NCBI GenBank assembly: GCA_965206595.1
Contig: OZ242214.1
Location: 1,394,986 to 1,458,985 of the forward strand
From: Candidatus Latescibacterota bacterium
GTDB taxonomy: Bacteria; Latescibacterota; UBA2968; UBA8231
Direction of reading: 5' to 3'
DNA length: 64,000 nucleotides
Shown piece after piece: positions 7,888-57,563 of this stretch. The notes beneath the pieces were generated by a model. That model ran no database searches, was not told where the DNA came from, and saw nothing but the letters and a program-made list of their open reading frames with translations. Both the position numbers and the translations under genes were made by a program. Within the stretch, counting starts at the first letter, position 1; each line of letters opens with the position of its first letter.

Positions 7888-8820
7888 CTACAGAGGGCTG
7901 GTGGTCGCCGCGGCCCCTGCCCGCTCTTCGGCCCACGCCTTGAGCGGGACGTCGTCCCAGTTCGAAGTGATCCAGTACTGGGAGGAGGGGTGGAACTCCG
8001 GCGTCTCCCCGAGGGGAGGCGACCCGGTGGCCAGCGCTCCCAGCAGCTGGCGGCGTATCGGAGAGCTGCGCGCGATCAGCTCGGGGTCCTGCTCGATGTA
8101 GTCGGTGGGCCGCAGCCAGCGGTAGTGGTAGCCGACGTGCATGATCTGGCGCGTCCTCGCCGACAGGTTGGGGCCGACGCAGTGCCAGGTCGCGGTGCGC
8201 CAGAGCACCGCGGTGCCGGGGGGAATCCTCAGCTCGACCGCGTCGTCGGGATCGACCGCGGAACCGTTCCGCAGCTCCTGCGGCCGCCGCAGGTGGCTGC
8301 CGGGCACCACCCAAAGGTTGCCGGAGTTCGACTCGCCGAGGTCGGAGAAGGCATAGAAGATCTTGACCTCCATGAACGGCAGGCGCCCGTCGAGGGAGGG
8401 GGCCTCGAACAGGTAGCTGCCGGCGAGATCGGGGTGCCAGTTGACGTTGCGGTACCCGGCCCGATGATCCTCCCCGTCGCCAAGGCCGACCCCTCCGGTT
8501 CGCATCCGGCGGGGGTAGGGCGGCCGGTAGTCGAGGTGGGAGGTGCGGATCTGGATGTTCCAGCCGATGGCGTCGACGACCAGGGGAAGGGCCTTCGGGT
8601 GATCGATCAGGTCGAGGAAAGCGTCGTGCTGGGCGAGGGCGTTGCGGACGGCAAAAGGCTCTTCGGGACCGAGGCCGGTCGATTCCCGGAGACGGGCGGC
8701 CACCTCGTCGACCGCTTCGAGCAGGCGGCCGACTTCGTACGGCTCGAGGAAGTCGTCGAGGATGACGTACCCCTTCTCCTCGAAGTCCCGCTGCTGCTCT
8801 GCGGTCATGGCGATGGCCAT
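7888..8820 (-). CDS. Phytanoyl-CoA dioxygenase (PhyH) family Fe(II)/2-oxoglutarate-dependent oxygenase
   Basis: 310 aa; N-terminal TAEQQRDFEEKGYVILDDFL, H-x-D (NWHPD), distal His (TWHCVGPN) and Arg. Confidence 0.85.
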   Translation of the reverse strand: MAIAMTAEQQRDFEEKGYVILDDFLEPYEVGRLLEAVDEVAARLRESTGLGPEEPFAVRNALAQHDAFLDLIDHPKALPLVVDAIGWNIQIRTSHLDYRPPYPRRMRTGGVGLGDGEDHRAGYRNVNWHPDLAGSYLFEAPSLDGRLPFMEVKIFYAFSDLGESNSGNLWVVPGSHLRRPQELRNGSAVDPDDAVELRIPPGTAVLWRTATWHCVGPNLSARTRQIMHVGYHYRWLRPTDYIEQDPELIARSSPIRRQLLGALATGSPPLGETPEFHPSSQYWITSNWDDVPLKAWAEERAGAAATTSPL

Positions 8821-10609: not shown

Positions 10610-12043
10610 TCACTCGATCCAGAAGGAATACAGGCTCGCCCGGTGCAGGTAGAACTTCAGCTGCACCGGTTTTTCGAACACGAGGTCGTGCGGATTCTTC
10701 CAGGCGACCCTGGCGCGGGTCGAGTCGCCGGTGAACGGAGGCGGGCGCTCGGCCGGCACCCAGAAACCGGGGATCGGCCGCCCCGACTCGGCGTCGAGGA
10801 TCTCGGTGTAGATCTCCCCCCAACGCGCGTCGGCGTTGATGTAGACCTCCTCCCCCTTGAGCTCGAACGGCCGCGTCGTGACGACGCCGTTGTCGCTGCC
10901 CTCGAGCGACACGAAGCCGTCGGGCCGCAGCCTGGCCAGCGACAGGGCCCCGCTGTCGGTGAAGTGGCGGGGATCGACCCCCATGCGATGCAGCTCGTCC
11001 AGCTTGTCGCGGCGCTCGTAGTTCTCCAGGGACGTACCCCACCTGAGGCCGTTGTAGTAGCACCAGATCTCGCCGTCGTCGCGGACGACCGGCTGTCCGG
11101 CCATCAGCAGCTGCCCGGTATCGTAGGTTTCCCCGTCGTATGGCTCGACCCCGAGGAAGACGGCGCGGTCGGCGACCCGCTCCCAGTGATGGAGGTCGCG
11201 GGAGACGCTGAGCTCCACCTGGTTGATGCGGTCGAAGTTGGTTGCCGGCGGAGGGTTGGCTCCGAAGGGGTTGAACAGCACCGGGAAGCCGACGTAGAGC
11301 CCCTGGTAGGGGAAGACGGCCATGTTGTAGACCTCGGCGATGTAGTCCTCGCCGTCGACCCCGGCAGGGGTCACGTAGGCCGGATCCTCGACGATTTTGC
11401 GCACCCGCTGCCGGCAGTTCTCGTGGTCGATTTCGTCGGAGTGGAAGATCAGCTTCGGCTCGCTGAACTCCTGAAAGTCGGGGCCGCTCGTCGAAAGGAA
11501 GATCGAGCGCCCCCATTCCGTTCCCTGCTTGACCATCGCCAGGTACTGGCCGCTGTAGGGGTCCCGGGTAAACTGCGACTCGTCGCTGCTGGGGATCGCC
11601 GGGGCGCCGGTCGGCGTCCACCGGAAGCCGTCGGGCGACAGCGCCGGCTGCCGGCCCCAGGCCGCAAGCAGACCCTTGTAGCGCCGCTGCGGATCGGGAT
11701 CTGCGTCGTCCCGCAGGAGGTGGTAGGCCCGCTCGCTGCGGTCGCCGCCCGGGTCAGCGGCGAGGTTGTTCTGCCGCGACCCTTCCCACTCGAACAGGCC
11801 GAGGTCGGGCAAGTCCCAGTGCTCGCCGTCCGCGGAGGTCGCGTAGCGGAGGTGGTCGCCGAAGTACCACCACTCCCATACCTGTTTGCCGGGGTTCCAC
11901 TGCGGCGAGTTGCGGCTCTGCACCCCGCCCGGTATCAGCGGGCCGCACTTCTTCGGCTGGTGCAGGCGCCGGGTTATGCGCTCGCTCGAATGGATGGCGC
12001 CGTCGTCGAGAAAGAGCTGGTGGAACCGCTTCGCCTGGAGCAT
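10610..12043 (-). CDS. Hypothetical cytoplasmic beta-propeller-like protein with Asp-box (BNR-like) motifs; possible glycoside hydrolase
   Basis: 477 aa, no signal peptide; S-x-D-x-G-x-x-W-like motifs (SADGEHWDL, SRDLHHWE); GAGGAG RBS 8 nt upstream of ATG. Confidence 0.6.
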   Translation of the reverse strand: MLQAKRFHQLFLDDGAIHSSERITRRLHQPKKCGPLIPGGVQSRNSPQWNPGKQVWEWWYFGDHLRYATSADGEHWDLPDLGLFEWEGSRQNNLAADPGGDRSERAYHLLRDDADPDPQRRYKGLLAAWGRQPALSPDGFRWTPTGAPAIPSSDESQFTRDPYSGQYLAMVKQGTEWGRSIFLSTSGPDFQEFSEPKLIFHSDEIDHENCRQRVRKIVEDPAYVTPAGVDGEDYIAEVYNMAVFPYQGLYVGFPVLFNPFGANPPPATNFDRINQVELSVSRDLHHWERVADRAVFLGVEPYDGETYDTGQLLMAGQPVVRDDGEIWCYYNGLRWGTSLENYERRDKLDELHRMGVDPRHFTDSGALSLARLRPDGFVSLEGSDNGVVTTRPFELKGEEVYINADARWGEIYTEILDAESGRPIPGFWVPAERPPPFTGDSTRARVAWKNPHDLVFEKPVQLKFYLHRASLYSFWIE

Positions 12044-15768: not shown

Positions 15769-16644
15769 ATGGCCAAACGCGACCTGAACTTCGATCCCGA
15801 AGAGGGGATCGGCTTCATGAACATCGACGAGACCGACTACGGCGCCATGACCCTGGGGGAGAAGATGCGCCACCTCGAGGTCGAGGGGTACGTCGTCCTT
15901 CCCGGCGTTCTCGACGCCGATCGCATGGACCGCATCAAGCAGGAGATGGCGGACGCGCCGATGGGGACCAAGGACTACAGCGACTGCCAGACCTACCACC
16001 GCGAGCCGCAGTGGTACAGCCCGGCCCTGGCGGAAGCGATCGCCAATCCGCCCGTGGTCGAGTTCCTCGAGGCCCTCTGCGGCGAGGAGATCGTCTTCAC
16101 CCGCGGGCTGTTCACGCGCACCCTGTCCGGGTCCCCACCGATCTCCCTGCACACCGACGGGCAGCCGTTCGGCTCCTCGATCTTCGGGTACGAGGGCAGC
16201 TCGCCGAAGCTGCTGCGGGTGCTCTACTACCTCGACGACCTCACCCCCGAGCGGGCCCCCCTGCGCGTGCTGCCGCGATCCCACCTCTCCTTTCACGCCG
16301 ATGCCAACCCGTACGTGCGTTACAAGTCGCACCCGGGAGAGGTGACCCTTTGCGCAAAGGCGGGGACCGCGGTCGTATTTCCGGTCAACATCTTCCACGG
16401 CACCCACCCCAACCGGTCGGATGCGCTGCGCACCCTGGTGCAGCTGGGGTACCGTCCGGCCTGGGCGGGCCCGATTCAGCCGATGGAGGATTGGGACCCC
16501 GAGCTGGTCGCCGCCGCCCCGGCCGTGGCGCGCCGCTTCCTGCAGAGCCTCAACACCTCCGGGGTCGACTGGGAGCAGCCGCACAAGCCGGCGGGGATGA
16601 GGGCGGACGCGCCGGCGATCGCCCCGGAACGCTGGGAACAATGA
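15769..16644 (+). CDS. PhyH-family Fe(II)/2OG dioxygenase
   Basis: H-x-D (SLHTDGQ), distal His (FHGTHPNRSD), Arg. Start at ATG 15769 (MAKRDLNFDPEE) with GGAG RBS; the ORF track extension from 15622 is not credited. Confidence 0.85.
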   Translation: MAKRDLNFDPEEGIGFMNIDETDYGAMTLGEKMRHLEVEGYVVLPGVLDADRMDRIKQEMADAPMGTKDYSDCQTYHREPQWYSPALAEAIANPPVVEFLEALCGEEIVFTRGLFTRTLSGSPPISLHTDGQPFGSSIFGYEGSSPKLLRVLYYLDDLTPERAPLRVLPRSHLSFHADANPYVRYKSHPGEVTLCAKAGTAVVFPVNIFHGTHPNRSDALRTLVQLGYRPAWAGPIQPMEDWDPELVAAAPAVARRFLQSLNTSGVDWEQPHKPAGMRADAPAIAPERWEQ

Positions 16645-17693
16645 GCCGTCCGAGCCTGCTGCTGGCTTGCAGCAGGGAGGTGCGCGCGGGATGCCTCGCC
16701 CCTGCCGACATCGAGCGGCTCCAACGGTTCGCCGACTGGTCCTGGTTCGAGTGCGAAGGGGGAGGCATCGAGTCGACCAACGAGGACCCCGCCACCGCCG
16801 ACGAACTGATAGCGCAGGTCGGGGACAAGGACGGCCTGATCGTCTGCCACGGATCTCCGACCGTCGACGGCCGCGTCCTCGACGCCGCTCCGAAGCTGCG
16901 CATCGTCGGCGAGCTCGAGGGAGACCGCTTCGCCAGCCGTCTCGATCTCGAGGCCCTGTGGAGGCGCGGGGTGCGTACCGTCGACACCAACAACGCCGCC
17001 TCCTACCCGGTGGCGGACTGGGCCCTTGCCCTGATGCTGATAGCGGTCCGCAACGGCAGCCACCATTACCGCCGCATGATCTCCGGAGAGACAGTAGCCG
17101 ACGCCGCGGTCCTGGAGACCGGGGCCGGCACCCTGATCAACAGGGAGATCGGCCTGATCGGGTGCGGCCACATGGGCCGCCGGCTGATCAGGCTGCTGCA
17201 GCCGTTCGAGCCGGCGCGGATCTGGGTGCACGACCCCTACCTGCCGCGCGAAATGGCCGAGGCCGTGGGGTTCGTGCAGACGTCGCTCGAGCACGTTCTC
17301 GGCCACTGCGACGTCATCGTCTGCCTGGCGCCGCTCACTCCGAGGACGCGGCGCATGGTCGGCCGTGCCGAGCTCGACCTGATCCGGCCGGGGTGCACCT
17401 TCGTCAACGTGTCGCGCGGGCCGATCGTCGATCCGCAGGCCCTGATCGAGCGGCTGAAGAGAGGGGACATCACCGCGGGGCTCGACGTCTTCGATCCGGA
17501 GCCGGTCCCCCCCGACAACGAGATCCTCGAGCTGCCGAACGTGTTCCTGAGCCCGCACATCGGCTGGTACGGTCCCGCGGTGAAGCAGCAGTATTTCACC
17601 CTGATGGTCGATGAGCTCAAGCGCTTCTTCGGCGGCCACGAGACCTGGTTCGACCTGACGCCGCGCTCCCGCGACAACCGCCGGGGCGCCTGA
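16641..17693 (+). CDS. D-isomer-specific 2-hydroxyacid dehydrogenase family (NAD-binding)
   Basis: ATG 16641 overlaps the PhyH stop (ATGA); Rossmann motif GLIGCGHMGRRL; family-typical segments (CLAPLTPRTRRMV, TFVNVSRGPIVD); lies inside long ORF 15645..17693, whose upstream part is not credited. Confidence 0.85.
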   Translation: MSRPSLLLACSREVRAGCLAPADIERLQRFADWSWFECEGGGIESTNEDPATADELIAQVGDKDGLIVCHGSPTVDGRVLDAAPKLRIVGELEGDRFASRLDLEALWRRGVRTVDTNNAASYPVADWALALMLIAVRNGSHHYRRMISGETVADAAVLETGAGTLINREIGLIGCGHMGRRLIRLLQPFEPARIWVHDPYLPREMAEAVGFVQTSLEHVLGHCDVIVCLAPLTPRTRRMVGRAELDLIRPGCTFVNVSRGPIVDPQALIERLKRGDITAGLDVFDPEPVPPDNEILELPNVFLSPHIGWYGPAVKQQYFTLMVDELKRFFGGHETWFDLTPRSRDNRRGA

Positions 17694-17796
17694 TGGGGAT
17701 GGGGATTCTGTTGAAGCTACGTGCAGCAGCCGGGATGCCCGGCCATCGACCGGGGCGACAGCCCGCCTGCGGGGCAGCTCTCCGGGGAGGCCGGCC

Positions 17797-18594
17797 ATGA
17801 GGGGGCCGCGGCTGCCGTACCGGTACGACCACTACACCTGGCCGGAGCTGCGCGACCTCGTGGCGCGGCAGCCGGCGGTGGTGCTGCCGGTCGGCTCGAC
17901 CGAGGACCACGGCCACCACCTGCCGCTCGACGTCGACACCTTCGTCGTCAGCGAGGTCTGCGAGGCCGCGGCGAAACGCATCCCAGACGAAGTGCTGCTG
18001 CTGCCGGCCCTGCCGTACGGCTTCGAGGACCACCACATGGATTTCCCCGGCACCATCACCGTGACGGACGAGCACCTGCTGCATTTCGTCCTCGACATCA
18101 CCCGCAGCGTCGCCCACCACGGCTTCCGCAAGATCCTGATCGTCAACGGCCATGGCTCCAACAGCCCGATCCTCGAGCTGGCGGCGCGGCGCACGGTGAT
18201 AGAGACCGAGGCGCACTGCGGGCTGCTGATGGGGGGCTCGGCCGAGGCCGAGAAGGTGCGCGAGTCCGAGGTGCTGTCGCACGCCGACGAGATCGAAACC
18301 TCGGTGTACCTGCATCTCAACGAGGAGGCGGTGCAGATGGACAAGGCGGCCCGCGACGAGAAGATGCCGGTGGGGCGCTACTACTGGCGCGGCTCCCTGA
18401 AGGGGAAGGGGGCCTCGCCGCTGAAGATGATGGACCACTGGTCGCGGGTCTCCGAAACCGGGGTGATCGGGGACGCCACCCTGGCGACGCGGCAAAAGGG
18501 GGAGCGCGTGTTCGCGGCGGCCGCGGCGCAGCTGGCCGAAATCATCCGGGAGTTCCGCGGTCTCCCGATCGCTGAACGCGTCGACCACCACTGA
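17797..18594 (+). CDS. Creatininase-family (creatinine amidohydrolase-like) metal-dependent amidohydrolase
   Basis: VVLPVGSTEDHGHHLPLDVDT motif and later HGSNSP; GGGGAGG RBS 8 nt upstream of ATG. Confidence 0.85.
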   Translation: MRGPRLPYRYDHYTWPELRDLVARQPAVVLPVGSTEDHGHHLPLDVDTFVVSEVCEAAAKRIPDEVLLLPALPYGFEDHHMDFPGTITVTDEHLLHFVLDITRSVAHHGFRKILIVNGHGSNSPILELAARRTVIETEAHCGLLMGGSAEAEKVRESEVLSHADEIETSVYLHLNEEAVQMDKAARDEKMPVGRYYWRGSLKGKGASPLKMMDHWSRVSETGVIGDATLATRQKGERVFAAAAAQLAEIIREFRGLPIAERVDHH

Positions 18595-18599
18595 TTCCG

Positions 18600-19424
18600 A
18601 TGACGGCTGCTTCACAATGGGAGCCGGTGGAAGCCGGCCGCGGAGAGATTCTCAAGGCCCACGAGCGCCCGCTGGAGCTGCTGGGGCGCGGCGAGGTCCC
18701 TGCCCTGGTTATGCGCCGGGCTTTTGATCCCGCCCACTGCGCCGCCCTCGTCGAGCGCTTCTACGAGCGCCGCCTTTTCTACGACCCGCGGGGCGAGGGG
18801 GAGGCGGTCTCCCGCGTCGACGTCGGGACCAGCCTCGGGCGCCACCGCGGCGACCCCGAGGGGTTCTTCGCCCACGCCCGTCAGACCCAGGACCTCTTCG
18901 AGACCCTTTTCGAGGGGTACGACGATCCGGTCGCCTTCATCTACGAGACCCTGTCGGCGCTCGCCCCCGGAAAGCGGGTCATGGTCGCCCGCGAGCCGGA
19001 CGGCCGTCAGTACGGCCCGGCGATCTTCCGCACCTACTACGAGGGGGTGGGGCACACCCCGCACTTCGACTCCGCCCGCAAGCGGTCGAAGCTGTTCGAC
19101 CTGCAGGTGTCGCGGTTCGAGAAGCAGTTCGCCGCGGTGTTGTGCTTCCAGAACGCCCTCGATGACGAGGAGGGTGGCCACGCCTTCCTCTACCGGCGCC
19201 AGTGGTCGGAGGAACTGACCGAGGAGCTGCCCCGTTTCCGGGAGTACGCGGCCGGGCACGGGATCGAGCGGGTTCGGATCGATCTGCAGCCGGGGGACTT
19301 CTACATCTTCTGCTCCGAGACGATCCACGAGGTGCCGCCGCCGAAAGGGGATCGGCCCCGCATCGTCCTGGCCAGCTTCTTCGCGATGTCCCCGGAGGAC
19401 GACGAGATCTACGTCTGGTCCTGA
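18600..19424 (+). CDS. Putative Fe(II)/2-oxoglutarate oxygenase-like protein (family unassigned)
   Basis: 274 aa; candidate facial triad GVGHTPHFDS (H-x-D), distal His in IFCSETIHEV, Arg in RPRIVLASFF; ATG only 5 nt after the creatininase stop. Confidence 0.55.
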   Translation: MTAASQWEPVEAGRGEILKAHERPLELLGRGEVPALVMRRAFDPAHCAALVERFYERRLFYDPRGEGEAVSRVDVGTSLGRHRGDPEGFFAHARQTQDLFETLFEGYDDPVAFIYETLSALAPGKRVMVAREPDGRQYGPAIFRTYYEGVGHTPHFDSARKRSKLFDLQVSRFEKQFAAVLCFQNALDDEEGGHAFLYRRQWSEELTEELPRFREYAAGHGIERVRIDLQPGDFYIFCSETIHEVPPPKGDRPRIVLASFFAMSPEDDEIYVWS

Positions 19425-19447: not shown

Positions 19448-20356
19448 TCAGCCCCCGTCCGCGAGCTTCTCCGCCTCGGCGGCGACGTCGATTCCGACCA
19501 TTTCGGTCCAGGCGTCGAGGAGCCGGCCGGTCACCTCGCCCGGCCTGCCGTCGGCGATCGCTTGCCTGTCGACGTGGGTGACCGGCAGGATCGACCAGGG
19601 GGTGCTGGCGAAGAAGGCTTCGTCCGCGGTGTGGATGTCGTACGGCTGAAGGTCTTCCTCGCTTGCGGGAATCCCGGTCTGCGCGGCGAGGTCGAGAACC
19701 GTCTGCCTGGAAACCCCGGCGAGGATGGCGCGGTCGTCCGGGGTGCGGAGGACGCCCCCGGAGACGATGAAGACGTTGTACCCCGACCCCTCGGTGAGGT
19801 TGCCCGCGGCATCGGTCAGGATCGGCCACGCTCCGGGGTCGAGGTCGTTGGCCTCGATTTCCGCCATGGCCATGTTCATGCGGCTGAGGTGCTTGATCTT
19901 GGGGTCGAGGGCGAGGGGATCGTAGCTGCGGGTTTTCGTGACCACCGCGTGCATGCCCTCCCTGTAGTAGCGGGCGACCCATTCGTTGGCGACCGGGGCG
20001 TACTTGATGTAGAGGTTCGGCGGCCCCGCCATCCACGCCCGAGGGCCGCCGGATCCCCGCGTCACCAGCTGCGTTATGATGAAATCGATGCCGGGAGCCC
20101 GCTCGCGATTGCGCCGGATCCCCTCCTCGGTCAGGGAGAGCATTTCCGCGGGGGACAGCTCGAGGTCGATGCGCACGTACTTGAGCGACTTGTACAGCCG
20201 CTCGATATGCTCTTCCAGCCGGAACCCCTTGCCGCCGAAGGTCCGCTCGACGTCGAGCACCTGGTCGCCCAGAAGGGTGCCGCGATCGTTCGGGTCGGGG
20301 AGCATCCGGCTCATCGGCAGCCATTCCCCGTTCTTGCAGCCTACCAGCTCAGGCAT
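19448..20356 (-). CDS. Class IV (branched-chain/D-amino-acid) PLP-dependent aminotransferase family
   Basis: Fold-type IV pattern (FRLEEHIERLYKS, TEGSGYNVFIV, RQTVLDL); start 3 nt after the stop of the upstream PhyH gene. Confidence 0.85.
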   Translation of the reverse strand: MPELVGCKNGEWLPMSRMLPDPNDRGTLLGDQVLDVERTFGGKGFRLEEHIERLYKSLKYVRIDLELSPAEMLSLTEEGIRRNRERAPGIDFIITQLVTRGSGGPRAWMAGPPNLYIKYAPVANEWVARYYREGMHAVVTKTRSYDPLALDPKIKHLSRMNMAMAEIEANDLDPGAWPILTDAAGNLTEGSGYNVFIVSGGVLRTPDDRAILAGVSRQTVLDLAAQTGIPASEEDLQPYDIHTADEAFFASTPWSILPVTHVDRQAIADGRPGEVTGRLLDAWTEMVGIDVAAEAEKLADGG

Positions 20357-20359
20357 TGC

Positions 20360-21226
20360 TCAGGCGACCACTATCGGGCGGTGGAGCAGGGTCTGGCTCT
20401 CGTAGATGGAGCCGCTGCGTCCCGGGCGGATGACAGCCGGCTCGGGCACCGCGGGAACGTCGGTGTGTCGCGGCTTGGCGATCGGCTTCCCCCTGATGAT
20501 GCAGGCGTCGAACGCGGCCATGTCCTCCGGCGGGTTCTTGATGGGCCAGGCATCGGCGGCGCAGTACTGCAGCAGGTAGAGACGGCGCGACCGGGTCTGG
20601 GAAGTGTTGGGTGCCGAGGCGTGCAGCATGGTGCCGTGGTGGATGGTGATCCCGCCCGCCTTCACCTCGACCGGGACCGCGTTCTCCGCGCCGAATTCGT
20701 TATCGGTGACGGCCCCGACGAAGAACTCCTCCTGGTAGTGGTTGTAGATCGGCCCCCGGTGCGATCCGGGGACGACCAGCAGGCAGCCGTTCTCCAGGTT
20801 CATGTCGTCGATGGCCACTCCCACGGCCAGGATGTCTTCGTTGGTGCGCGCGCAGAAGGCGTAGTCCTGGTGCCATTCGACCGGGCTGCCGAACCCGGCC
20901 GACTTCATGTTGAGCTTGCCGCTGAAGTGGCGGATGTCCGGGCCGACCAGCTGCGCGACCTTGTCGAGAATGCGGCTGTCGCGGAAGATGCGGTCGTACG
21001 CCGGGTGCAGCTCCTCGGGATGCTTGAGGCGCCGCAGGCGCGGGGAAGCGGGGCTGTGCCCGGGCTCGAGGTCGAAGTCCTCGTCGTTCTCCGTCACCTG
21101 CCGGGAGCGCTCGACGAACTCGTCGGTTACCCGCCTGAGCTCCTCGATCTCCGGGCCTGAGAAAACCCCTTCCACGCTGGTGTAACCCCGGGCGTGGTAG
21201 GCTTCGACCTGTTCCTGTGTCAGCAT
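20360..21226 (-). CDS. PhyH-family Fe(II)/2OG dioxygenase
   Basis: Canonical N-terminus MLTQEQVEAYHARGY; H-x-D (EWHQDYAF), distal His/Arg (TIHHGTMLHASAPNTSQTRSR). Confidence 0.9.
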   Translation of the reverse strand: MLTQEQVEAYHARGYTSVEGVFSGPEIEELRRVTDEFVERSRQVTENDEDFDLEPGHSPASPRLRRLKHPEELHPAYDRIFRDSRILDKVAQLVGPDIRHFSGKLNMKSAGFGSPVEWHQDYAFCARTNEDILAVGVAIDDMNLENGCLLVVPGSHRGPIYNHYQEEFFVGAVTDNEFGAENAVPVEVKAGGITIHHGTMLHASAPNTSQTRSRRLYLLQYCAADAWPIKNPPEDMAAFDACIIRGKPIAKPRHTDVPAVPEPAVIRPGRSGSIYESQTLLHRPIVVA

Positions 21227-21323: not shown

Positions 21324-22406
21324 TCACTCCAGGGGCGGTATCCCCTGACCCGCGGCGGCGCGCCGATTCCAGGAGACCCTGCCGGCGGCGACGTCTTCGA
21401 GGCTCAACTTCTCGCCGCCCCGCTCGGCCGAGCAGTTCGCTCCCAGCACCGCGACGAGGCTGTTGACGCTCGCCGGGTAGGGCGACCGCGTCGCCGTCGG
21501 ATCTTCGGCCCTGACCGCGGCGATGAAGGCGCGCGCCTGCAGCGCCTGGCAGTTCCGGCCGCCCCTGGCCGCCTCCTCGTCCTCGAAGACCGCGGTTCCG
21601 TTCTCGACCACCCTGTCGCTGCTCCATTCGACAATCGAGTCGTCGCCGACGACGGTCAGGGCGCGGCGTCCGGGGCCGGAGTCGCCGTCGTACAGGACCC
21701 TCGCCGTCGAGGCGTTGGCGAGCAGGCCGGAGGCGAAGCGGAAGTTGGCGGTGTACACGTGCGGCAGGTTCATCGGCTCGGGCCCCTCGCCGGGCCGGCG
21801 CCACTGGTAGAAGGCGGAGACGTCGGCGATGTCGCCGAGCAGGTAGCGCAGCAGGTCGACCATGTGGATGGTGTTCTCGACGAAAGAGCCGCCGCACTCC
21901 TCGTAGCGGCTCGTCCACCAGCGCAGCGGCTTTCCGGAGTAGAACATCTGGATCGAGGCGTGCCGGGGGGTTCGCTGACGCAGGAGCTGCCGGGCGGCCT
22001 TCGCCGAGGGGTGGTAGCGGAACTGGAAGCCGACCTGGCTGACGATGCCGGCGCGCTCGATGACCGCGGCGGTCTCGACCGCCTCGGCGGCGTCGAAGCT
22101 GACCGGTTTCTCGACGAACAGGTGGATCCCCCTTTCGGCGACCTCCCTCACTTCGCCGGTGTGCCAGGTAGGGGGCAGGCAGACGTAGACAGCGTCGAGC
22201 TCCTCGCTGTCGAGCATCTGCCGGTAGTCCCCGTAGGTCGCCGCGGGCCCGTACTCTGCGGCGCGTTCCTTCAGGGCCTCGGGGTCGACGTCGCAGAACG
22301 CCTGCAGAACGACCTCCCCGCTCCCGACCAGGGGGGCGAGCGCCGGAAGGTGCGCCCGCGAGGCGATGTGCCCGGTGCCGATGACTCCCACCCTGACAGC
22401 TCTCAT
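21324..22406 (-). CDS. Gfo/Idh/MocA-family NAD(P)-dependent oxidoreductase
   Basis: Rossmann N-terminus MRAVRVGVIGTGHIA, EKP motif (HLFVEKPVS); start at the internal ATG preceded by AGGAGA (ORF track starts 30 nt upstream at 22436). Confidence 0.85.
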   Translation of the reverse strand: MRAVRVGVIGTGHIASRAHLPALAPLVGSGEVVLQAFCDVDPEALKERAAEYGPAATYGDYRQMLDSEELDAVYVCLPPTWHTGEVREVAERGIHLFVEKPVSFDAAEAVETAAVIERAGIVSQVGFQFRYHPSAKAARQLLRQRTPRHASIQMFYSGKPLRWWTSRYEECGGSFVENTIHMVDLLRYLLGDIADVSAFYQWRRPGEGPEPMNLPHVYTANFRFASGLLANASTARVLYDGDSGPGRRALTVVGDDSIVEWSSDRVVENGTAVFEDEEAARGGRNCQALQARAFIAAVRAEDPTATRSPYPASVNSLVAVLGANCSAERGGEKLSLEDVAAGRVSWNRRAAAGQGIPPLE

Positions 22407-22569
22407 GCTTTCGGTCTCCTGGTCATGCAAAGGCAACCATCCGCCGGCAGGCTCGGAGGCGGTGCCACGGGTTTTCCGGCGCGGCTATGCCGGGGTTGAT
22501 CGCAGCGAGCCGTGCCGTACAATGCAGCCGCGAGGATAAGCAGTTCGACCTGAGACGGGAAGAAGCGAC

Positions 22570-23679
22570 ATGGAAGCGAAGAAGTACCGCGTCGCCGTGG
22601 TCGGCGGCGCCGGCACCTGGGGCCGCTACTACACCCGGGCCTGCGCCGAGCATCCGCAGTGCGAGATCGTCGCCCTCGTCGACAGGGCCCGGGAGAGGCG
22701 GCAGCGGTTCGCCGAGCATTACGGAATCCCCCGCACCTGCGACTCCATCGAGGAGCTGCTGGCCGACGAGGTGCCCGACATCGTCACCGCCAGCATCCCG
22801 GTCGCCTGGATACACGACACCGTCGTCGCCTGCGCCGAGGCCGGGGTCAGGGCGGTGTCGTGCGAGAAGCCGATCGACTACCAGCTGTCCCGCGCCGACG
22901 AGACCGTTAGGATCTGCCGCGAGCGCGGCACCGCCTTCGGCTGCGGCACCGCCCACTGGGGAGAGCCGTTCCTCCCCGAGACCGTCGCCTGGCTGCGGGA
23001 GGGCCACCTCGGAAAGGTGACCGCCGCGGCCATCCCAGGCGGGCTCCCCACCGAGGTCTCGGGAGGCGGCTGCCACATCCTGGCCATGATGCGCTTCGTA
23101 ACAGGTCTCGAGGTGGAGTGGGTCGAGGGAGTCACCCATCCCCCGGAACCGACCTTTGCCGCCGCCGAGGCCGAGAGCGACACCGAGATCGATCGGCCCG
23201 CGTACGGCAGGCTCGGGCTTGCCGGCGGCGCCGTCTGCGCGGCGCTCGATCCGCAGCTCGGGCACCGCGGCTGCATCCTCTCGGTCAGCGGCGAGAACGG
23301 CCGCGTCTGGATCTCGCGGCCGCGGCCGGTGATCGTGCTGGGAACCGGGGCCGAAGCGACCCCGGTCTTTCCCGAGTTTCTCGAAGGGCCGCCGCCGTCT
23401 CCCGGGGCCATGCACATGATCCGCCACGCCATCGACCGGCTCGTCGCAGCCTGCGAGACCGGGAGCAGCGAGGTCTCCTGCAGCGGCGCCGACTACCTGC
23501 GCGCCCTGGAGACCGCCATCGCCCTGAACCACTCGGCCGCCCGCGGCGGGGAGCGCATCGAGCTGCCCCTCGAGGACCGCTCGCTCAAGCTCTACCCGCA
23601 TCCCTACCGGCTCTACGGCGGCGATCAGGCCGGCTGGGAGAGCATCGGCTACAGCGGCCCCCCGGACATCGCGGCGTAG
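22570..23679 (+). CDS. Gfo/Idh/MocA-family oxidoreductase (divergent from 21324..22406)
   Basis: N-terminal YRVAVVGGAGTWGRYY nucleotide-binding motif, CEKP motif. Confidence 0.8.
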   Translation: MEAKKYRVAVVGGAGTWGRYYTRACAEHPQCEIVALVDRARERRQRFAEHYGIPRTCDSIEELLADEVPDIVTASIPVAWIHDTVVACAEAGVRAVSCEKPIDYQLSRADETVRICRERGTAFGCGTAHWGEPFLPETVAWLREGHLGKVTAAAIPGGLPTEVSGGGCHILAMMRFVTGLEVEWVEGVTHPPEPTFAAAEAESDTEIDRPAYGRLGLAGGAVCAALDPQLGHRGCILSVSGENGRVWISRPRPVIVLGTGAEATPVFPEFLEGPPPSPGAMHMIRHAIDRLVAACETGSSEVSCSGADYLRALETAIALNHSAARGGERIELPLEDRSLKLYPHPYRLYGGDQAGWESIGYSGPPDIAA

Positions 23680-24892: not shown

Positions 24893-25985
24893 AGCAAGTC
24901 CCCGGAATACAACGGACGCGAGCACGGGTGGTCCGCCCATTACGACGGCGAGTGGGTCTCGGCCGTACTGGCGGTGTTTCTGCGCGTGGTGGGCGGCTGG
25001 TATCGACGTCAGGCGCAGGCCATGGGCCATGACCGCGCGCGGTGGGGCTCGGTGACCTTCGTCCAGCGGTTCGGTTCCTCCCTGAACCTCAATCCCCACA
25101 TGCACGTGCTCATGCTCGACGGGGTCTACGTCGATGGGGAGGACGCTCCGGTTTTCGTAGCGGCCCCGCCGTTGTCGGACCAAGCCGTGCAGCAGATCGT
25201 GGAGACGAGTGCGCGCCGCATCATCCGCTTGTGCACGAAACGCGGCCTGTTGGACGACACCGCCGCCGATCCGCTCGCCGACGAGGAGCCGGTGCTGGCG
25301 GCTCTCACCGCGGCTTCGGTGCGAGGGCTCACCGCCACACCGGGGCCCGCGCCGGCCAACGCCTGCGCCGGGTCCTGAAAGATCCGGCCACCGGGGTGCG
25401 TACGGCGCCCTTGTGCTTTGCTTCGCGCGGCTTTTCGCTGCATGCGGCAACGCGGATCGCAGGCCCTGACCGGCGCGGGCTCGAACGCTTGTGCCGCTAC
25501 GTGGCCCGGCCGCCCTGGCGGGAGGGCGTCTGCGCTTTGTCGATGCCGACCCTCTTTCCTTCGCGCTCAAAACGCCGTGGTCGGATGGGACCCGCCATCT
25601 CCTGCTGTCTCCGATGGACCTGCTGGAGAAGCTGGCGGCTCTGGTTCCCCCGCCCCGGTTTCATCTCCTGCGCTACCACGGGGTCCTGGCGCCCCGGGCC
25701 CGGGCCCGCGAGCGCATCGTGCCGGCCAAGCCGGTTGCCGAGTCGTCGTCGGCGGACGGCTCGGCGAGCGTTGCGTCCTGCGGCCATCGACTGCGGTGGG
25801 CGACCCTGCTGGCGCGGGTGTTTTCCTCCGACCTCAGCGAATGCGCGGCATGCGGCGGTGGCCTGAGAATCATCGCCGCCCTGACCGATCCGGCCTCGAT
25901 CCGGACCTATCCGGAGGGGGTAGGGCTGCCGGCGATGCCCCCGCCGAGGGCCCCGCCTGAGCCGCTGTTCGAGTTCGCCGCCTGA
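24893..25985 (+). pseudogene. IS91-family (HUH, rolling-circle) transposase remnant: 5'-truncated and frameshifted
   Basis: Pieces in three frames: HUH-like NLNPHMHVLMLDGVY (ORF 24974..25378), LCRYVARPPW region (frame of 25042..25866), C-terminal FHLLRYHGVLAP plus Cys-rich CGHRLRW...CAACGG (ORF 25491..25985). Open frame begins only at 24893, directly after the ydjM-like gene, so the N-terminal ~100 aa are missing. Confidence 0.65.
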
Positions 25986-26636: not shown

Positions 26637-28382
26637 TCAGCCCATCGCCGGAGCTATGGCTTCGGGTTTGGGCGTAAGCGCCCGCAGCATTCTCTTGAAA
26701 TTGCAGGCCAGGGCTTTCAGGTAGACGGCCAGCTCCACGCGCCAGCGTCCGCGCACACGCAGGGCGCCCAGCCCGTGTCTTCGTTTCAGTTCCGAGACCG
26801 TGGCCTCGATGCCGGCGCGAATGCGATAGCGCTCCTTGAAGGCGCCGCTGGCGATGGCGCGGCGGCGGCGTTCGAGGTTGACGGCTTTCAGGTCCACGGT
26901 TACGGCGTAGCCGTCCCCGTCCTGGTTCGGCCGCACCGGGCAGAGGGGAAACAGGGCGCAGGTCTGGCAGCTTCGGCGCTCGAAGGTCAGCACCACGTGG
27001 TGCTTCTTCTTCTCATACGACGTTTGCTCTCTAGCCAGGTATCCGGCCGGGCAGATGGCCGGATCCCGGAGACGGGCCTCGACGAGGAAGTCGGCTTCGG
27101 TCACCGTATCGGGGCGCTCCTCGACGTCGACCTGCGGGCCTTTGACCGGGCTGACCAACTCGGTGCCCAGGCGCTCGGCGTTGACGGCGTTGTCGCCGGA
27201 GCCGAAGGCGGTGTCGGCGACCAGCTCGTCGGGTCGTTGCCCGCGCTCTTCGAGGGCCTCCAGCACCGGCATCGTCGCGTGCTCGTCACTGGCGCAGGCA
27301 TCGGTCACCGCTACGTGGGTGATCCTGTTCACGGTGTCGGTCTGGTCGTCGTCGGTCTGGTCGTCGTCGGTCTGGTCGTCGTCAGTCTGGTCGTCGTCAG
27401 TCTCGACGCAGGTCTCGGCGATCTGCACCTCATACCCCTTGCCCTTGCGGCCGTGGTAGGTGGCCTCGGCATCATAGGGGCTTTGCAGCGAGTCGCTGCC
27501 GACCTTCTCAGGCGCCTTCAGCACCACCGGCACGCCGCCTTCGCCGGCGTCGTCGTCCTCGGTCGAGGGGCGCTGCTTGTCCACGATCACCTCACACTGC
27601 TCCCACAGCAGGCGCTGCAGCAGCGCGTAGGATGCCAGGCCCTCCGCCGCCGTGCCCGCAAACAGCTGATGGAGACGGTAGAGGTCGCGGGCGCACACCG
27701 GCAGCCGCCTCTTGCCCGTGCCGGAGGGCGCGTCCTGGTAGGCCGTGGCGCTGCCGTCCTCCTTCAGGTAGCGCTCGCGCAGGCGCTTCGACACCCGCCC
27801 GTACAGGCGCGGATGCTCCGCCGCCAGGGTTTTCAGAAAGTGACGGAGGGTCTCACACAACAGCCCCAGACGCGACAACACCGCGATGTTGCTGAGCACG
27901 TGGGTGGAGTCCAGACGCTGCCGGGTGACCTTCGTACCCAACGCTTGGAGAATGCCATCCGTGGTCGCCTCGAACGCCTGCCGGCCGCGGTCATGGGCCA
28001 GCAAGCGAGCGCGGAAGTTGTGCAGCGTCAGGACGTTGTTAGTCCTCGTCTTCTGCGCCAGGTGGGCCTCCTCCGGGGTCAGCTCCAGGGCGTGCTGCCA
28101 CAGCAGGCTGAACTCCAGCTGCTCCAGCGCCTCGGCGTCGGTCAGAGCGAACATCTCCTTGAGCAGAAGCACGCCCAAGACCGTCGCCACCGGCTGGTTG
28201 GGACGACCGTTGTCGTCGCAATACAAGAGCGCGAACTGTTCTTCGTCGATCAGCGGCAAGGCGTGCGCGCGAAAGCTCTCGGCCCAGCTCGCCTGCAGGC
28301 GCCGCTGCTTGGACGGAGGCACCAGGTTGCGGCTCTCGAACAGGGTGCGTTGCGAATCCTTCGTACGAAACATCAGCCCCAT
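26637..28382 (-). CDS. IS1182-family DDE transposase
   Basis: 581 aa; N-terminal MGLMFRTKDSQRTLFESRNLVPP, C-terminal Cys-rich region (CQTCALFPLCP), acidic linker with (DDDQT)x4. Confidence 0.8.
   Translation of the reverse strand: MGLMFRTKDSQRTLFESRNLVPPSKQRRLQASWAESFRAHALPLIDEEQFALLYCDDNGRPNQPVATVLGVLLLKEMFALTDAEALEQLEFSLLWQHALELTPEEAHLAQKTRTNNVLTLHNFRARLLAHDRGRQAFEATTDGILQALGTKVTRQRLDSTHVLSNIAVLSRLGLLCETLRHFLKTLAAEHPRLYGRVSKRLRERYLKEDGSATAYQDAPSGTGKRRLPVCARDLYRLHQLFAGTAAEGLASYALLQRLLWEQCEVIVDKQRPSTEDDDAGEGGVPVVLKAPEKVGSDSLQSPYDAEATYHGRKGKGYEVQIAETCVETDDDQTDDDQTDDDQTDDDQTDTVNRITHVAVTDACASDEHATMPVLEALEERGQRPDELVADTAFGSGDNAVNAERLGTELVSPVKGPQVDVEERPDTVTEADFLVEARLRDPAICPAGYLAREQTSYEKKKHHVVLTFERRSCQTCALFPLCPVRPNQDGDGYAVTVDLKAVNLERRRRAIASGAFKERYRIRAGIEATVSELKRRHGLGALRVRGRWRVELAVYLKALACNFKRMLRALTPKPEAIAPAMG
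27336..27404. repeat. 15-bp tandem repeat (about 4.5 units, GTCGGTCTGGTCGTC) inside the IS1182 transposase gene
   Basis: Three perfect units at 27336-27380, then a G->A variant and a partial unit; encodes the DDDQT repeat on the minus strand. Confidence 0.85.
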
Positions 28383-37769: not shown

Positions 37770-38522
37770 CTACGCCACCCGCTGGCCGCCCCGCAGCACC
37801 GGCAGCCGATCCCCCCAGGGCTCGCCGGTGCGCACCAGGACCGGGTCGGGCACGTGGTACTGGGGCACATAAGCCCGCCGCGGCCGGTCCCTGGAGGTAT
37901 TGGGACCGCTGCGATGCAACAGCAGCGATGAGAACACCGCCACCTGCCCGGCGCGCATCTCCACCGGAATGGCCCCGTCGTCATCCACCTGGGCGTTCTT
38001 GCCCCCGTAGCGTTGCTCGTCCTCCTCTTCCGTTACGTGCTCGAGCACGCCGCGCCTGTGGGATCCGGGAATGATCCATATGCAGCCGTTCTCGAGGTCG
38101 GAGTCGGAGATCGCCGTCCAGCAGGTGATGTACTCCAGCGGCTCCGTCTTCGTATAGCCTGAATCCTGGTGCCAGTCGAAAACCTTGCCGAGGCCTCCGG
38201 GCATTTTCGTCGTCGCCTGGTTGTAGTAGAGATCCACATCCTCCCCGATTAGGAGGCGGCAGGCTTCCAGGTAAACCGGCTTCCTGAGGAAATCGAGCGC
38301 CACCGGGCTCAGGGTGTGAAACTGGGAGAACGAGCGGCGTCCGCGAGCGCTTTCCACCGCCGGGGCATCCCCAAGGGCCTCCGCCTCGCGCACGTGCTCG
38401 GCGTATACCCGGTCCATCTCCGCCGCCATCGGTTCGAGCTCCCCAGGAGAAAAAACCACGCCGGTAACGAAGTAGCCCAGCTCGCGAAACTGCTGCACTT
38501 CTTCAGTGCTGATCAGGGTCAT
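37770..38522 (-). CDS. PhyH-family Fe(II)/2OG dioxygenase
   Basis: H-x-D (DWHQDSGY), distal His/Arg (LLLHRSGPNTSRDRPR). Start at ATG 38522 (MTLISTEEVQQFRELGYF); ORF track opens at GTG 38561. Confidence 0.8.
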   Translation of the reverse strand: MTLISTEEVQQFRELGYFVTGVVFSPGELEPMAAEMDRVYAEHVREAEALGDAPAVESARGRRSFSQFHTLSPVALDFLRKPVYLEACRLLIGEDVDLYYNQATTKMPGGLGKVFDWHQDSGYTKTEPLEYITCWTAISDSDLENGCIWIIPGSHRRGVLEHVTEEEDEQRYGGKNAQVDDDGAIPVEMRAGQVAVFSSLLLHRSGPNTSRDRPRRAYVPQYHVPDPVLVRTGEPWGDRLPVLRGGQRVA

Positions 38523-38583
38523 GGGGCACCGCTTTTTGAGAGGTTGCTTCCGGTTGGCCACCCGGGCCCGGAGGAGAAAGAGG

Positions 38584-46263: not shown

Positions 46264-47172
46264 TCACCGGGCCGCCTTGACCCCGGGCATGGCCGGGACG
46301 TAGGACTGCCGGCGCCGATTTCCCGATGTCCATGCGGCGTCGGCGGGGTGGTGCTCCTCAAGCCATTCCCGCAGCGGGGCTTCGCCCTTTTCTGGCGCGT
46401 ACGCGCTGTTGTTGCTCGGGTTGTCGCGGAGCAGCTGCCGCCGGATCGAGTCGAGCCCTGGGTAGAGGTGTTGGACGGTCATGTCGTCCTTGGGCAGCAG
46501 CCAGCGGTAGCTGTAGCCCATCATCAGCATCTTGCGCGTCTCGTGCCAGCTGTTGACGCTGCGGCTGTGCCAGATGCGGCGGTCGATGATGACGGAGGTG
46601 CCGGGCGGCACGCACAGGGGAATCGCCCCCTCCGGGCTGGAGCGGCCGTCTTCGGGAACGTCGATTTCGTCGTGCAGGTGCGATCCCGGGACGATAAGTG
46701 TGTTGCCGCGGCCGGTCCCGGACATGTCGCTGACGAAGAAGAAGACTTTGATGGAAAGCCGTGGGCGCGGCGTCGCCTCGATTTCGTCGTTAACCCGCAT
46801 GCTGTCCTGGTGCCAGGCCACGGTGGGGCCCGATCGCCGCCGGTCCGGGTCGCCCGGGGGGGTCACCAACAGGCCGGAGTGGTAGATGCAGATGTTCCAG
46901 CCGAGTATTCCCCAGACCTTGGGGAAGGTGGTCTCCCAGTCGATCAGGTCGAGAAACAGGGGGTTCTGGCCGATGATGTCGGGAATGTCGATGGGGTCGT
47001 GCGGCCCGAATCCATAGGCGCGCTGCTTTGCGGCGACCAGGCGGTCACAGGCATGCCGGAGGGCCTCGGTGCGGTCGGACGGCAGGGCGTCCGGAACGAC
47101 GAGGTAGCCCTGTTCCTCGAACTCGGCGCGCTCCGAATCGGTCAGGCAATGGGCCAGGCAGGAGGGAGTCAT
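46264..47172 (-). CDS. PhyH-family Fe(II)/2OG dioxygenase
   Basis: N-terminal LTDSERAEFEEQGYLVVPD, H-x-D (AWHQDSMR), distal His/Arg (IWHSRSVNSWHETRK); 47 bp upstream of Rieske paralog 2. Confidence 0.85.
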   Translation of the reverse strand: MTPSCLAHCLTDSERAEFEEQGYLVVPDALPSDRTEALRHACDRLVAAKQRAYGFGPHDPIDIPDIIGQNPLFLDLIDWETTFPKVWGILGWNICIYHSGLLVTPPGDPDRRRSGPTVAWHQDSMRVNDEIEATPRPRLSIKVFFFVSDMSGTGRGNTLIVPGSHLHDEIDVPEDGRSSPEGAIPLCVPPGTSVIIDRRIWHSRSVNSWHETRKMLMMGYSYRWLLPKDDMTVQHLYPGLDSIRRQLLRDNPSNNSAYAPEKGEAPLREWLEEHHPADAAWTSGNRRRQSYVPAMPGVKAAR

Positions 47173-57450: not shown

Positions 57451-57563
57451 GTCGGCTCCGGCGTTTCTGTGAACTCGAGAATTGTCAGGCTTGGATTGTT
57501 GGCAAACCATCATCTGAAAATAGCGAAATTGCGTTCTGCGCCACCAAACCGAAGGAGCATACG

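Follow-up and report, generated by a model that had tools for sequence, protein, structure and literature searches.

Layout and conservation of the four-gene cluster

The DNA analysed was a stretch of 64,000 nucleotides (hereafter the window) of contig OZ242214.1 from Candidatus Latescibacterota bacterium, and the element in question was a compact cluster of four genes on its plus strand. The cluster encoded PhyH_A, a PhyH-family Fe(II)/2-oxoglutarate (Fe/2OG) oxygenase, a D-isomer-specific 2-hydroxyacid dehydrogenase (2HADH), a creatininase-family metal-dependent hydrolase and a second Fe/2OG oxygenase with the fold of the halogenase WelO5 (Table 1). The window had a GC content of 62–70%, in a genome of 65–70% GC, and many spurious long open reading frames (ORFs). 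Genes were picked by their third-position GC content (GC3), followed by family searches. GC3 was 0.88–0.94 for three of the four cluster ORFs, all four carried the GC3 signature of real genes and their lengths matched gene calls in relatives.

The stop codon of PhyH_A and the start codon of the 2HADH gene overlapped as ATGA (16641–16644), and the creatininase and WelO5-like genes were separated by the five nucleotides TTCCG. A GGAG Shine-Dalgarno sequence preceded the start codon of PhyH_A at 8 nt. An earlier reading of the DNA, referred to here as the original prediction, had placed both junctions exactly, as judged from the sequence and the ORF list, and had deduced from them the co-translation of four enzymes. 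The functional unit held, with gene order conserved at 69–96% protein identity. The unbroken chain did not, because a 103-nt spacer splits the cluster; the genes are better described as two pairs with predicted translational coupling, PhyH_A–2HADH and creatininase–WelO5-like.

Table 1. Positions of the cluster and of neighbouring features in the window.
Feature	Position	Strand	Details
Candidate promoter TTGTTC-N17-TATTAA	15678..15707	+	62 nt 5' of PhyH_A start
PhyH_A, PhyH-family Fe(II)/2-oxoglutarate oxygenase, 291 aa	15769..16644	+	ATG 15769, TGA 16642–16644
D-isomer-specific 2-hydroxyacid dehydrogenase (2HADH), 350 aa	16641..17693	+	ATG 16641–16643, stop 17691–17693
Spacer between 2HADH and creatininase genes, 103 nt	17694..17796		GGGGAGG Shine-Dalgarno sequence 7 nt before creatininase ATG
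Creatininase-family metal-dependent hydrolase, 265 aa	17797..18594	+	ATG 17797, TGA 18592–18594
WelO5-fold Fe(II)/2OG oxygenase, 274 aa	18600..19424	+	ATG 18600, TGA 19422–19424
AT4, class IV aminotransferase (branched-chain/D-amino-acid type, BCAT)	19448..20356	-	PF01063 144 bits; no equivalog cut-off reached
PhyH_B, third Fe/2OG oxygenase, 288 aa	20360..21226	-	PF05721 121 bits; His119-x-Asp121
GFO1, GFO/IDH/MocA oxidoreductase	21324..22436	-	PF01408 and C-terminal domains
GFO2, second GFO/IDH/MocA oxidoreductase, divergent from GFO1	22570..23679	+	PF01408
477-aa protein	10610..12043	-	No Pfam or NCBIfam match
Ankyrin-repeat protein, 648 aa	13598..15544	+	Directly upstream of the operon
Rieske protein, about 580 aa	42697..44439	-	N-terminal Rieske [2Fe-2S] domain
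Rieske protein, about 580 aa	44450..46216	-	N-terminal Rieske [2Fe-2S] domain

Species genomes of GTDB were scanned with an alignment of WelO5-like proteins. Of 156 loci obtained, 80 were retained. These were labelled Poribacteria (33), Latescibacterota (33), Gemmatimonadota (8), Opitutales/Verrucomicrobia (2) and Planctomycetota (1), and three were unclassified. The closest loci, L001 and L002, were labelled Latescibacterota, held WelO5-like proteins of 88–93% identity and were syntenic with the window. L002 showed the same gene order and ATGA overlap, with proteins of 88–95% amino acid identity. The 2HADH gene of L001 was cut after about 123 codons by an insertion of about 7 kb (L001 1902–9200) comprising a 1137-aa ORF and others. 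In metagenomic contig L081, the four genes were arranged identically, down to the 4-nt overlap, the 103-nt spacer and the 5-nt gap, at 93–96% amino acid identity (WelO5-like 93%, PhyH_A 96%); additional genes were inserted downstream. The TARA ocean contigs L085 and L086, with a GC content of 0.50 compared with 0.68, held the four genes in the same order with the same 4-nt overlap, at identities of 83% (PhyH), 69% (2HADH), 80% (creatininase) and 69% (WelO5-like). Their upstream gene was YajQ, unlike in the window, and orthologues of GFO1 (65%) and GFO2 (71%) were located downstream. The same order and overlap with different flanks and GC content therefore point to the four-gene cluster as a selected unit.

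Locus L092 encoded a WelO5-like protein and a creatininase homologue of 80% and 91% identity, with the genes 3 nt apart and a dienelactone hydrolase in place of the PhyH–2HADH pair. AT4, PhyH_B and GFO2 followed there at a distance of 7 kb, past a transposase and a giant gene. The creatininase gene adjoined the WelO5-like gene in the window, L081, L001, L002, L085/L086 and L092. The gap between the two was 3–13 nt in the window, L081, L085 and L092, and the central spacer was variable at 103–244 nt. Judged by these sequence comparisons, the creatininase and WelO5-like genes form the most constant core, and PhyH_A–2HADH is a frequent partner. The bacterium is taken to be an uncultured one, marine or sponge-associated, with metagenome-assembled genomes (MAGs) labelled Latescibacterota as its nearest relatives. 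Its four genes are regarded as a genuine operon maintained by vertical descent and conserved across a narrow range of lineages.

Both pairs are probably read from one promoter 5' of PhyH_A. The 30-mer of the candidate promoter occurred once in the window and was present with the same sequence in L081. Both of its hexamers were retained in L001 and L002, where the spacer and neighbouring bases diverged. It may be the promoter of the operon. It was not flagged by a promoter/terminator consensus scan, which was uninformative. No terminator-like site was detected between the cluster genes, and two matches of the scan inside the WelO5-like coding sequence were at chance level.

ATGA overlaps of 4 nt and gaps of a few nucleotides are the commonest junctions of bacterial operons. 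Other tight junctions were present in the window, between AT4 and PhyH_B (3 nt) and between two Rieske genes (10 nt). Packing alone was therefore not unusual. It is the conservation of gene order and of the 4-nt overlap that goes beyond chance.

Predicted functions of the encoded proteins

All four family assignments of the original prediction were right, with Pfam scores of 66, 148, 242 and 77 bits in gene order. The WelO5-like protein matched Pfam PF22814 with 76.7 bits against a cut-off of 27, and its match to 2OG-FeII_Oxy_3 was below threshold. A profile built from 21 WelO5-like homologues matched the WelO5 structures with an E-value of about 1e-10 and SadA with 1.4e-3. The AlphaFold2 (AF2) model had a predicted local distance difference test score (pLDDT) of 90. 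Its best Foldseek matches were WelO5, WelO5* and Wi-WelO15 (5IQS, 5IQT, 6GEM), with template modelling (TM) scores of 0.76–0.80 and 18–20% identity, followed by SadA. The profile alignment paired His155, Asp157 and His243 with His164, Gly166 and His259 of WelO5. The residues His155, Asp157, His243 and Arg254 were invariant across the 21 family members. Many further Arg, Asp, His and Lys residues were invariant as well, and R39, R53, D62, R72, D74, K125, R144, R172 and Q176 were noted in particular. The halogenase signature His-x-Gly/Ala was replaced by His155-Phe-Asp157, with Asp157 at the position of WelO5 Gly166. This carboxylate ligand is absent in halogenases, and hydroxylation or another oxidation is therefore expected, not chlorination. 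The WelO5-like protein is probably a hydroxylase or another oxygen-transferring enzyme.

The WelO5-like subfamily was tight: its proteins were about 275 aa long, and the homologues listed shared at least 53% identity. It was often present in several copies per genome, as in MAGs of Poribacteria, Latescibacterota and Gemmatimonadota, and its members were all annotated as 'hypothetical'. The family was also narrow. Of 1.84 billion representatives of 50%-identity clusters, 73 matched at E ≤ 1e-30, many of them fragments. In the distant members P0494, P0498 and P0499, the WelO5-like domain was fused C-terminally to other enzymes, an aldo/keto reductase in two and a methyltransferase with a short-chain dehydrogenase/reductase (SDR) in one (1233 aa). 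These fusions are possible Rosetta-stone links and give a hint that the product of the oxygenase is a carbonyl compound. Literature searches returned neither a characterised hydroxylase-type WelO5 homologue nor a relevant new function in the creatininase family. The hydroxylase-type WelO5 subfamily is the most interesting element of the locus.

PhyH_A matched PF05721 with 66 bits against a cut-off of 22 and contained His128-x-Asp130 and a distal His at 210/213. Its nearest relatives in the PDB, DhiD, TlxI and EasH, were remote, with E-values of about 1e-6. From their His-x-Asp triads, both cluster oxygenases are predicted to be of the oxygenating, not the halogenating type. The 2HADH, a member of the D-isomer family PF02826/PF00389, matched PF02826 (2-Hacid_dh_C) with 148 bits and showed the motifs GxGxxG at 174, SRG at 258 and PHIG at 305. 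Its best PDB matches were phosphoglycerate dehydrogenase (PGDH), 2-ketogluconate reductase and glyoxylate reductase, with E-values of 1e-36 to 1e-31. The best NCBIfam equivalog was PGDH, with 148 bits against a cut-off of 454.

The creatininase homologue matched PF02633 with 242 bits. Its metal-binding and catalytic motifs were intact (Glu36, His38, Asp47, His119, His162 and Glu167), in the pattern Glu-x-His-x8-Asp, the NGHG His and His-x4-Glu. These residues comprise the binuclear-metal ligands and the catalytic His, presumably in the arrangement of the Pseudomonas putida enzyme. Scores on the NCBIfam models were all below their cut-offs, with 147.2 against 172 bits for MftE (TIGR03964), 111.5 against 235 for creatininase (TIGR04448), 84 against 245 for IolN (NF041098) and 24 against 180 for ArfB. 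The match to TIGR04448 fell into two stretches, and the creatininases in the PDB aligned only with residues 13–126. The protein is accordingly placed, on present models, outside all characterised subfamilies tested. Catalytic motifs are intact in all four proteins of the cluster.

Neighbouring genes and dispersed homologues

AT4 was convergent with the cluster, its end lying 23 nt past the stop codon of the WelO5-like gene. It was also located near the cluster in L081, L002, L001 and L092 with 81–94% identity, with insertions in between. AT4 and PhyH_B belonged to one operon, and the pair was kept in L092, where the two genes overlapped. In L001, AT4 and GFO1 appeared as split matches, which may reflect pseudogenes or assembly frameshifts. 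The best NCBIfam model for GFO1 was IolG, with 110 bits against a cut-off of 355. In L085 and L092, GFO2 orthologues of 71–77% identity occupied the corresponding position. The conserved unit GFO1–PhyH_B–AT4 (22436 to 19448, minus strand) is a regular neighbour of the core.

Between 4 and 24 kb, the window encoded, in order, a TonB-dependent receptor, a PIG-L deacetylase, a PhyH protein, a ThuA protein, an SMP-30 lactonase, a 477-aa and a 141-aa protein without Pfam domain and the ankyrin-repeat protein. The four-gene cluster, AT4–PhyH_B–GFO1, GFO2, a YdjM-family membrane protein and transposase remnants followed. The neighbours also included a 7-bladed lactonase, a GH42 glycoside hydrolase and a major facilitator superfamily (MFS) protein, and TonB receptors numbered two in all.

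Homologues of the 477-aa protein were annotated as 'hypothetical' in MAGs of Latescibacteria and Gemmatimonadetes. Its AF2 model (pLDDT 85.6) resembled five-bladed propeller glycosidases with a C-terminal beta-sandwich, of the families GH32, GH43, GH62 and GH130, with E-values of about 3e-9 at a low global TM score. One homologue, of 31% identity, immediately preceded a WelO5-like gene in L064, and others were located 5–8 kb from WelO5–PhyH pairs in Poribacteria. A relationship to the GHL10-like protein beside the WelO5-like genes of Poribacteria was considered and rejected, as the two were unrelated in BLASTP.

The ankyrin-repeat protein had counterparts of 82–88% identity in L081 and L002. 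Sponge symbionts typically encode eukaryote-like repeat proteins. Seven PhyH genes were present in the 64 kb (7888–8820, 15769–16644, 20360–21226, 37770–38561, 46264–47172, 53906–54979 and 56581–57600). Together with one WelO5-family gene, they amounted to an extreme local density of Fe/2OG oxygenases. This density matches the massive PhyH expansion described in sponge-associated Poribacteria, for which functions are mostly unassigned (Kamke et al. 2014, PMC3909097). Directly downstream of the PhyH gene at 46264–47172, two tandem Rieske proteins were encoded 10 nt apart, each with a long C-terminal part without Pfam match. Debris of mobile elements was detected at 24974–25378, 25491–25985, 26637–28382 and 47493–48581. 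A Y2 (IS91-type) transposase was split in two ORFs, a DDE transposase was complete and encoded on the minus strand, and a further one was of the DDE_3/HTH type. GC content fell to 0.57 at 28–30 kb. L081, L001 and L092 carried differing insertions at the borders of the cluster, and the region is therefore a rearrangement hotspot.

The original prediction had named scattering of the genes in related genomes as evidence against it. Near-orthologues kept the four-gene order, and scattering was found only at larger distances, with WelO5-like proteins of 53–66%, 2HADH of 43–66% and some creatininase homologues of 71–79% identity in other contexts. The WelO5-like homologues of 53–66% identity occupied several recurrent contexts. 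In about 19 Poribacteria loci, the WelO5-like gene was followed directly downstream by a PhyH_A orthologue (64%) and then by a galactonate-dehydratase-like MR_MLE protein, a CocE/NonD hydrolase, a GFO protein and a GHL10-like protein. Another context comprised PhyH, FGE-sulfatase, WelO5-like, MR_MLE and three DUF6785/6784 membrane proteins and, about 8 kb off, a class IV aminotransferase. A third held an Opp-type ATP-binding cassette (ABC) ATPase and secreted CHU_C proteins, the WelO5-like protein and an M28 peptidase. A fourth consisted of urease accessory genes, MR_MLE, WelO5-like, Ldh_2, a UxuA-like protein, DUF6785 and MR_MLE. Some homologues adjoined housekeeping genes. The MR_MLE neighbours scored 247 bits on the galactonate dehydratase model and 206 bits on the rhamnonate model. 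Their reading as dipeptide or N-acyl-amino-acid racemases, which would favour a peptide substrate, was discarded, as two of three tested scored best on acid-sugar dehydratase models.

Creatininase homologues were also found with other partners. In L087–L089, the homologue followed three luciferase-like monooxygenases; aldolases and Ldh_2 were encoded close by. In L176/L177 (1286–8271), a homologue of 73–76% identity had a second creatininase paralogue, AP_endonuc_2 and Ldh_2 as neighbours and was convergent with an overlapping distant PhyH/2-Hacid_dh pair and PIG-L. In L180 (5001–8376), a homologue of 73–76% directly preceded two genes, one pabB-like (chorismate-binding) and one pabC-like (with the class IV aminotransferase fold). 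The L178 homologue (71%) was beside a homologue of the 477-aa protein of the window and an ankyrin protein. Among 80 metagenomic 2HADH homologues (43–66% identity), the other three cluster genes were never alongside. The contexts of these were gamma-glutamyltranspeptidase (GGT) with an Opp/Dpp transporter, or MR_MLE, GFO, SDR, Amidohydro_2 and a sugar ABC transporter, which places this dehydrogenase subfamily generally in utilisation loci.

Metabolic role and related systems

With moderate confidence, the operon is interpreted as encoding part of a catabolic or scavenging route for a nitrogen-bearing, carboxylate- or sugar-derived small molecule, and not a biosynthetic tailoring cassette. This interpretation is based on the conserved unit, the lack of a scaffold-building gene in the window and the utilisation-type neighbours of every component family. 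GFO proteins, the class IV aminotransferase, the third PhyH protein, PIG-L, ThuA, the SMP-30 lactonase and the GH32/43-like protein were counted as catabolic surroundings of the cluster. The same applied to acid-sugar-dehydratase-like MR_MLE, Ldh_2, UxuA-like, GFO, CocE/NonD, M28 and Opp-type ABC ATPase genes beside WelO5-like paralogues, to the two contexts of the 2HADH homologues, and to aldolases, Ldh_2, AP_endonuc_2, PhyH and 2-Hacid_dh beside creatininase homologues. The style of the genome, with seven PhyH genes in 64 kb, was counted in favour as well. The fusions of WelO5-like domains with aldo/keto reductases fit a carbonyl compound as the product of the oxygenase.

The proposed chemistry was drawn from known reaction types of the families. 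The Fe/2OG oxygenases would hydroxylate C–H bonds; at a nitrogen- or oxygen-bearing carbon, the substituent would be released and a carbonyl unmasked. The creatininase-type binuclear metal hydrolase could open a cyclic amide or hydrolyse an amide or, like IolN, a 1,3-dicarbonyl. The class IV enzyme would remove an amino group by transamination and leave a 2-oxo acid, 2HADH would interconvert 2-oxo and 2-hydroxy acid, and the GFO/IDH/MocA enzymes would oxidise ring or chain hydroxyls.

Several observations weigh against a catabolic role. No transporter or regulator was present inside the conserved unit, and none of the four cluster proteins reached an NCBIfam equivalog cut-off, in agreement with the original prediction, which called the substrate unknown. 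For these two reasons, the term catabolic is drawn from genomic context. The neighbouring families also pointed in two directions, towards sugars, sugar acids or cyclitols (GFO, MR_MLE dehydratase-like and UxuA-like proteins, lactonases, the GH-like protein, PIG-L) and towards amino acids or peptides (aminotransferase, peptidases, Opp/Dpp, GGT). A nitrogen-containing carboxylate derived from a sugar or an amino acid would reconcile both sets of partners. Disruption of the 2HADH gene in L001 and its absence in L092 indicated that the four genes are not jointly indispensable. Creatininase homologues of 71–79% identity occurred in unrelated contexts, with orotidine monophosphate (OMP) decarboxylase, with pabB/pabC-like genes or alone, and the hydrolase may serve a general function and be loosely tied to the pathway.

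A more specific form of the catabolic role, the breakdown of cyclitols or aminocyclitols (inositol-like or rhizopine-like) or of keto-sugar acids, was considered unlikely. In such a pathway, GFO enzymes would oxidise ring hydroxyls, an IolN-like hydrolase would open the diketo ring, 2HADH would reduce the keto-aldonate, the aminotransferase would remove a ring amino group and the Fe/2OG oxygenases would demethylate or hydroxylate substituents. The IolN model matched the hydrolase over its full length (84 bits, E 1e-23), and the best model for GFO1 was that of the myo-inositol 2-dehydrogenase IolG (110 bits). However, both scores were far below the equivalog cut-offs (245 and 355), and for the hydrolase IolN ranked behind the MftE and creatininase models. 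The resemblance of 2HADH to 2-ketogluconate and glyoxylate reductases would suit this pathway. So would the lactonases, ThuA, AP_endonuc_2, UxuA-like proteins, acid-sugar-dehydratase-like MR_MLE and GH32/43-like protein among the neighbours and paralogue contexts. A kinase, an aldolase and an IolE/IolD-type gene were absent from the conserved unit. Improbable to a similar degree was a role in the biosynthetic tailoring of small molecules other than ribosomal peptides, with enzymes that decorate or build a secondary metabolite or a compatible solute. The characterised WelO5 relatives and the nearest PDB matches of PhyH_A (DhiD, TlxI, EasH, AndA) are natural-product enzymes, yet the similarity was remote (18–20% identity, E-values of about 1e-6 to 1e-10). 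Pairs of a class IV aminotransferase and a 2-hydroxyacid dehydrogenase occur in the supply of hydroxy-acid building blocks and were counted in favour of tailoring. Against it, the Pfam-scanned ORFs of the window held no scaffold-forming enzyme, resistance gene, exporter or regulator, and the WelO5-like family was multi-copy per genome in varied contexts of sugar and peptide utilisation.

Maturation of a ribosomally synthesised and post-translationally modified peptide (RiPP), with the creatininase homologue as an MftE-like peptidase and oxygenases that hydroxylate the peptide, is scarcely credible and already largely refuted. The original prediction had associated creatininases paired with oxygenases with the tailoring of modified peptides and small molecules. 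The pairing itself recurred (with the WelO5-like protein here, luciferase-like enzymes in L087–L089 and a distant PhyH in L176); the link to peptides was not borne out. MftE is a documented peptidase among creatininase homologues and depends on MftA/B/C (PMC10885120). It gave the best-scoring NCBIfam model for the hydrolase, at 147 bits still below the cut-off of 172, and was the sole RiPP-linked creatininase homologue found in the literature searched. MftA/B/C or other RiPP genes were not present in the window. A Pfam search of about 45 GC3-selected ORFs of the 64-kb window detected no gene for a radical-SAM protein, RiPP recognition element (RRE), non-ribosomal peptide synthetase (NRPS), polyketide synthase (PKS) or ATP-grasp enzyme. 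The original prediction had also suggested that the flanks be searched for short ORFs as possible precursors. All ORFs of at least 15 aa were listed in three spacers, and a single short ORF was obtained (17693–17800, plus strand, 35 aa), which spans the 103-nt spacer. Its junctions TGATG and ATGA would link all four genes translationally. The spacer had 79% nucleotide identity to L081 compared with 94–96% for the flanking genes. The start codon was changed from ATG to ATA in L081, stops occurred in all frames in L002, and the L085 spacer was 244 nt long, AT-rich and unalignable, with a wholly different upstream region. The ORF was not conserved in these three loci and was ruled out as a precursor peptide; it is regarded as having arisen by chance in a GC-rich spacer. 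With permissive settings, an Rfam scan of 12–26 kb detected no structured RNA or riboswitch there, the only match being a chance microRNA (miRNA) elsewhere. Creatinine or creatine utilisation, with the hydrolase as a true creatinine amidohydrolase (EC 3.5.2.10) that channels host-derived creatinine into metabolism, was judged very unlikely. The Pfam Creatininase score of 242 bits and the conserved metal ligands would suit it, the Joint Genome Institute (JGI) named close homologues 'creatinine amidohydrolase', and sponges have been reported to supply creatinine to symbionts (PMC8546597). The JGI names are, however, automatic family-level labels. TIGR04448 reached 111 of 235 bits, the solved creatininases were similar only over residues 13–126, and the annotated window genes included no creatinase, sarcosine oxidase, N-methylhydantoinase or cytosine/creatinine deaminase.

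Beyond the catabolic interpretation, it is tentatively suggested, with more doubt than confidence, that an undescribed catabolic pathway, acting on a common metabolite of marine or sponge origin, has its key oxygenase in the WelO5-fold His-x-Asp subfamily. The operon and its convergent unit would then be the most complete genetic description of that pathway. The subfamily occurred in MAGs labelled Poribacteria, Latescibacterota, Gemmatimonadota, Opitutales and Planctomycetota. If the suggestion is true, the WelO5 family would gain its first natural function in primary metabolism that is not halogenation, and the unexplained expansion of Fe/2OG oxygenases in sponge symbionts would become approachable for the first time. 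Finding the substrate would give a function to the conserved, uncharacterised hydroxylase-type branch of a family whose known members are otherwise all alkaloid halogenases, and would account for one small part of the PhyH/2OG-oxygenase expansion that typifies Poribacteria and Latescibacterota associated with sponges. At present, the locus looks like a normal operon made up of widespread enzyme superfamilies; it opens no long-standing question and contradicts no expectation.

The closest known systems resembled parts of the operon. The carrier-protein-independent halogenases WelO5, AmbO5 and Wi-WelO15 (5IQS, 5IQT, 6GEM) share PF22814, the two His iron ligands and an alignable C-terminal region with the WelO5-like protein; TM scores were 0.76–0.80 across about 280 columns. 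They differ by the low identity (18–20%) and by Gly166 in place of Asp157, which was present here and in the 21 aligned relatives. The top match was the structure of the engineered WelO5 variant G166D (5IQU), which carries Asp as does the WelO5-like protein. Known members of the family act on hapalindole-type alkaloids in cyanobacterial biosynthetic clusters, whereas the subfamily described here occurred in utilisation-type contexts. The next-best relative was the N-succinyl-L-amino-acid beta-hydroxylase SadA (3W20/3W21), with a profile E-value of 1.4e-3, a Foldseek E-value of 6e-9 and a TM score of about 0.6. SadA is paired with the desuccinylase LasA. Its combination with a desuccinylase parallels the logic of an Fe/2OG hydroxylase and an amide hydrolase seen here, although the similarity was weak and the hydrolase here is of the creatininase family, not an M20/amidohydrolase-type desuccinylase.

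For the hydrolase, the mycofactocin peptidyl-dipeptidase MftE (TIGR03964) was of the same creatininase fold family and the best curated model. It differed by a score below 172, by partners (MftA, MftB, MftC, MftD) not found in the window and by the lack of a conserved short ORF. The Thermotoga-type IolN (NF041098) and IolG dehydrogenases share a creatininase-family hydrolase near GFO/IDH/MocA proteins, with a weak full-length match. The score was far below 245, and neither the oxygenases nor the aminotransferase has a counterpart in the IolN pathway. PhyH-rich loci of sponge symbionts resembled the window in PhyH density, the adjoining ankyrin protein, the Poribacteria and Latescibacterota relatives and the unassigned functions; a PhnY/PhnZ-type function has been assigned to few of their PhyH genes only (PMC3909097). 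The operon differs from these loci in having no PhnZ/HD partner and in adding WelO5-like, creatininase and 2HADH genes. It combines widespread enzyme superfamilies in an uncharacterised operon of a familiar kind, in a PhyH-rich genome of marine or sponge-associated origin.

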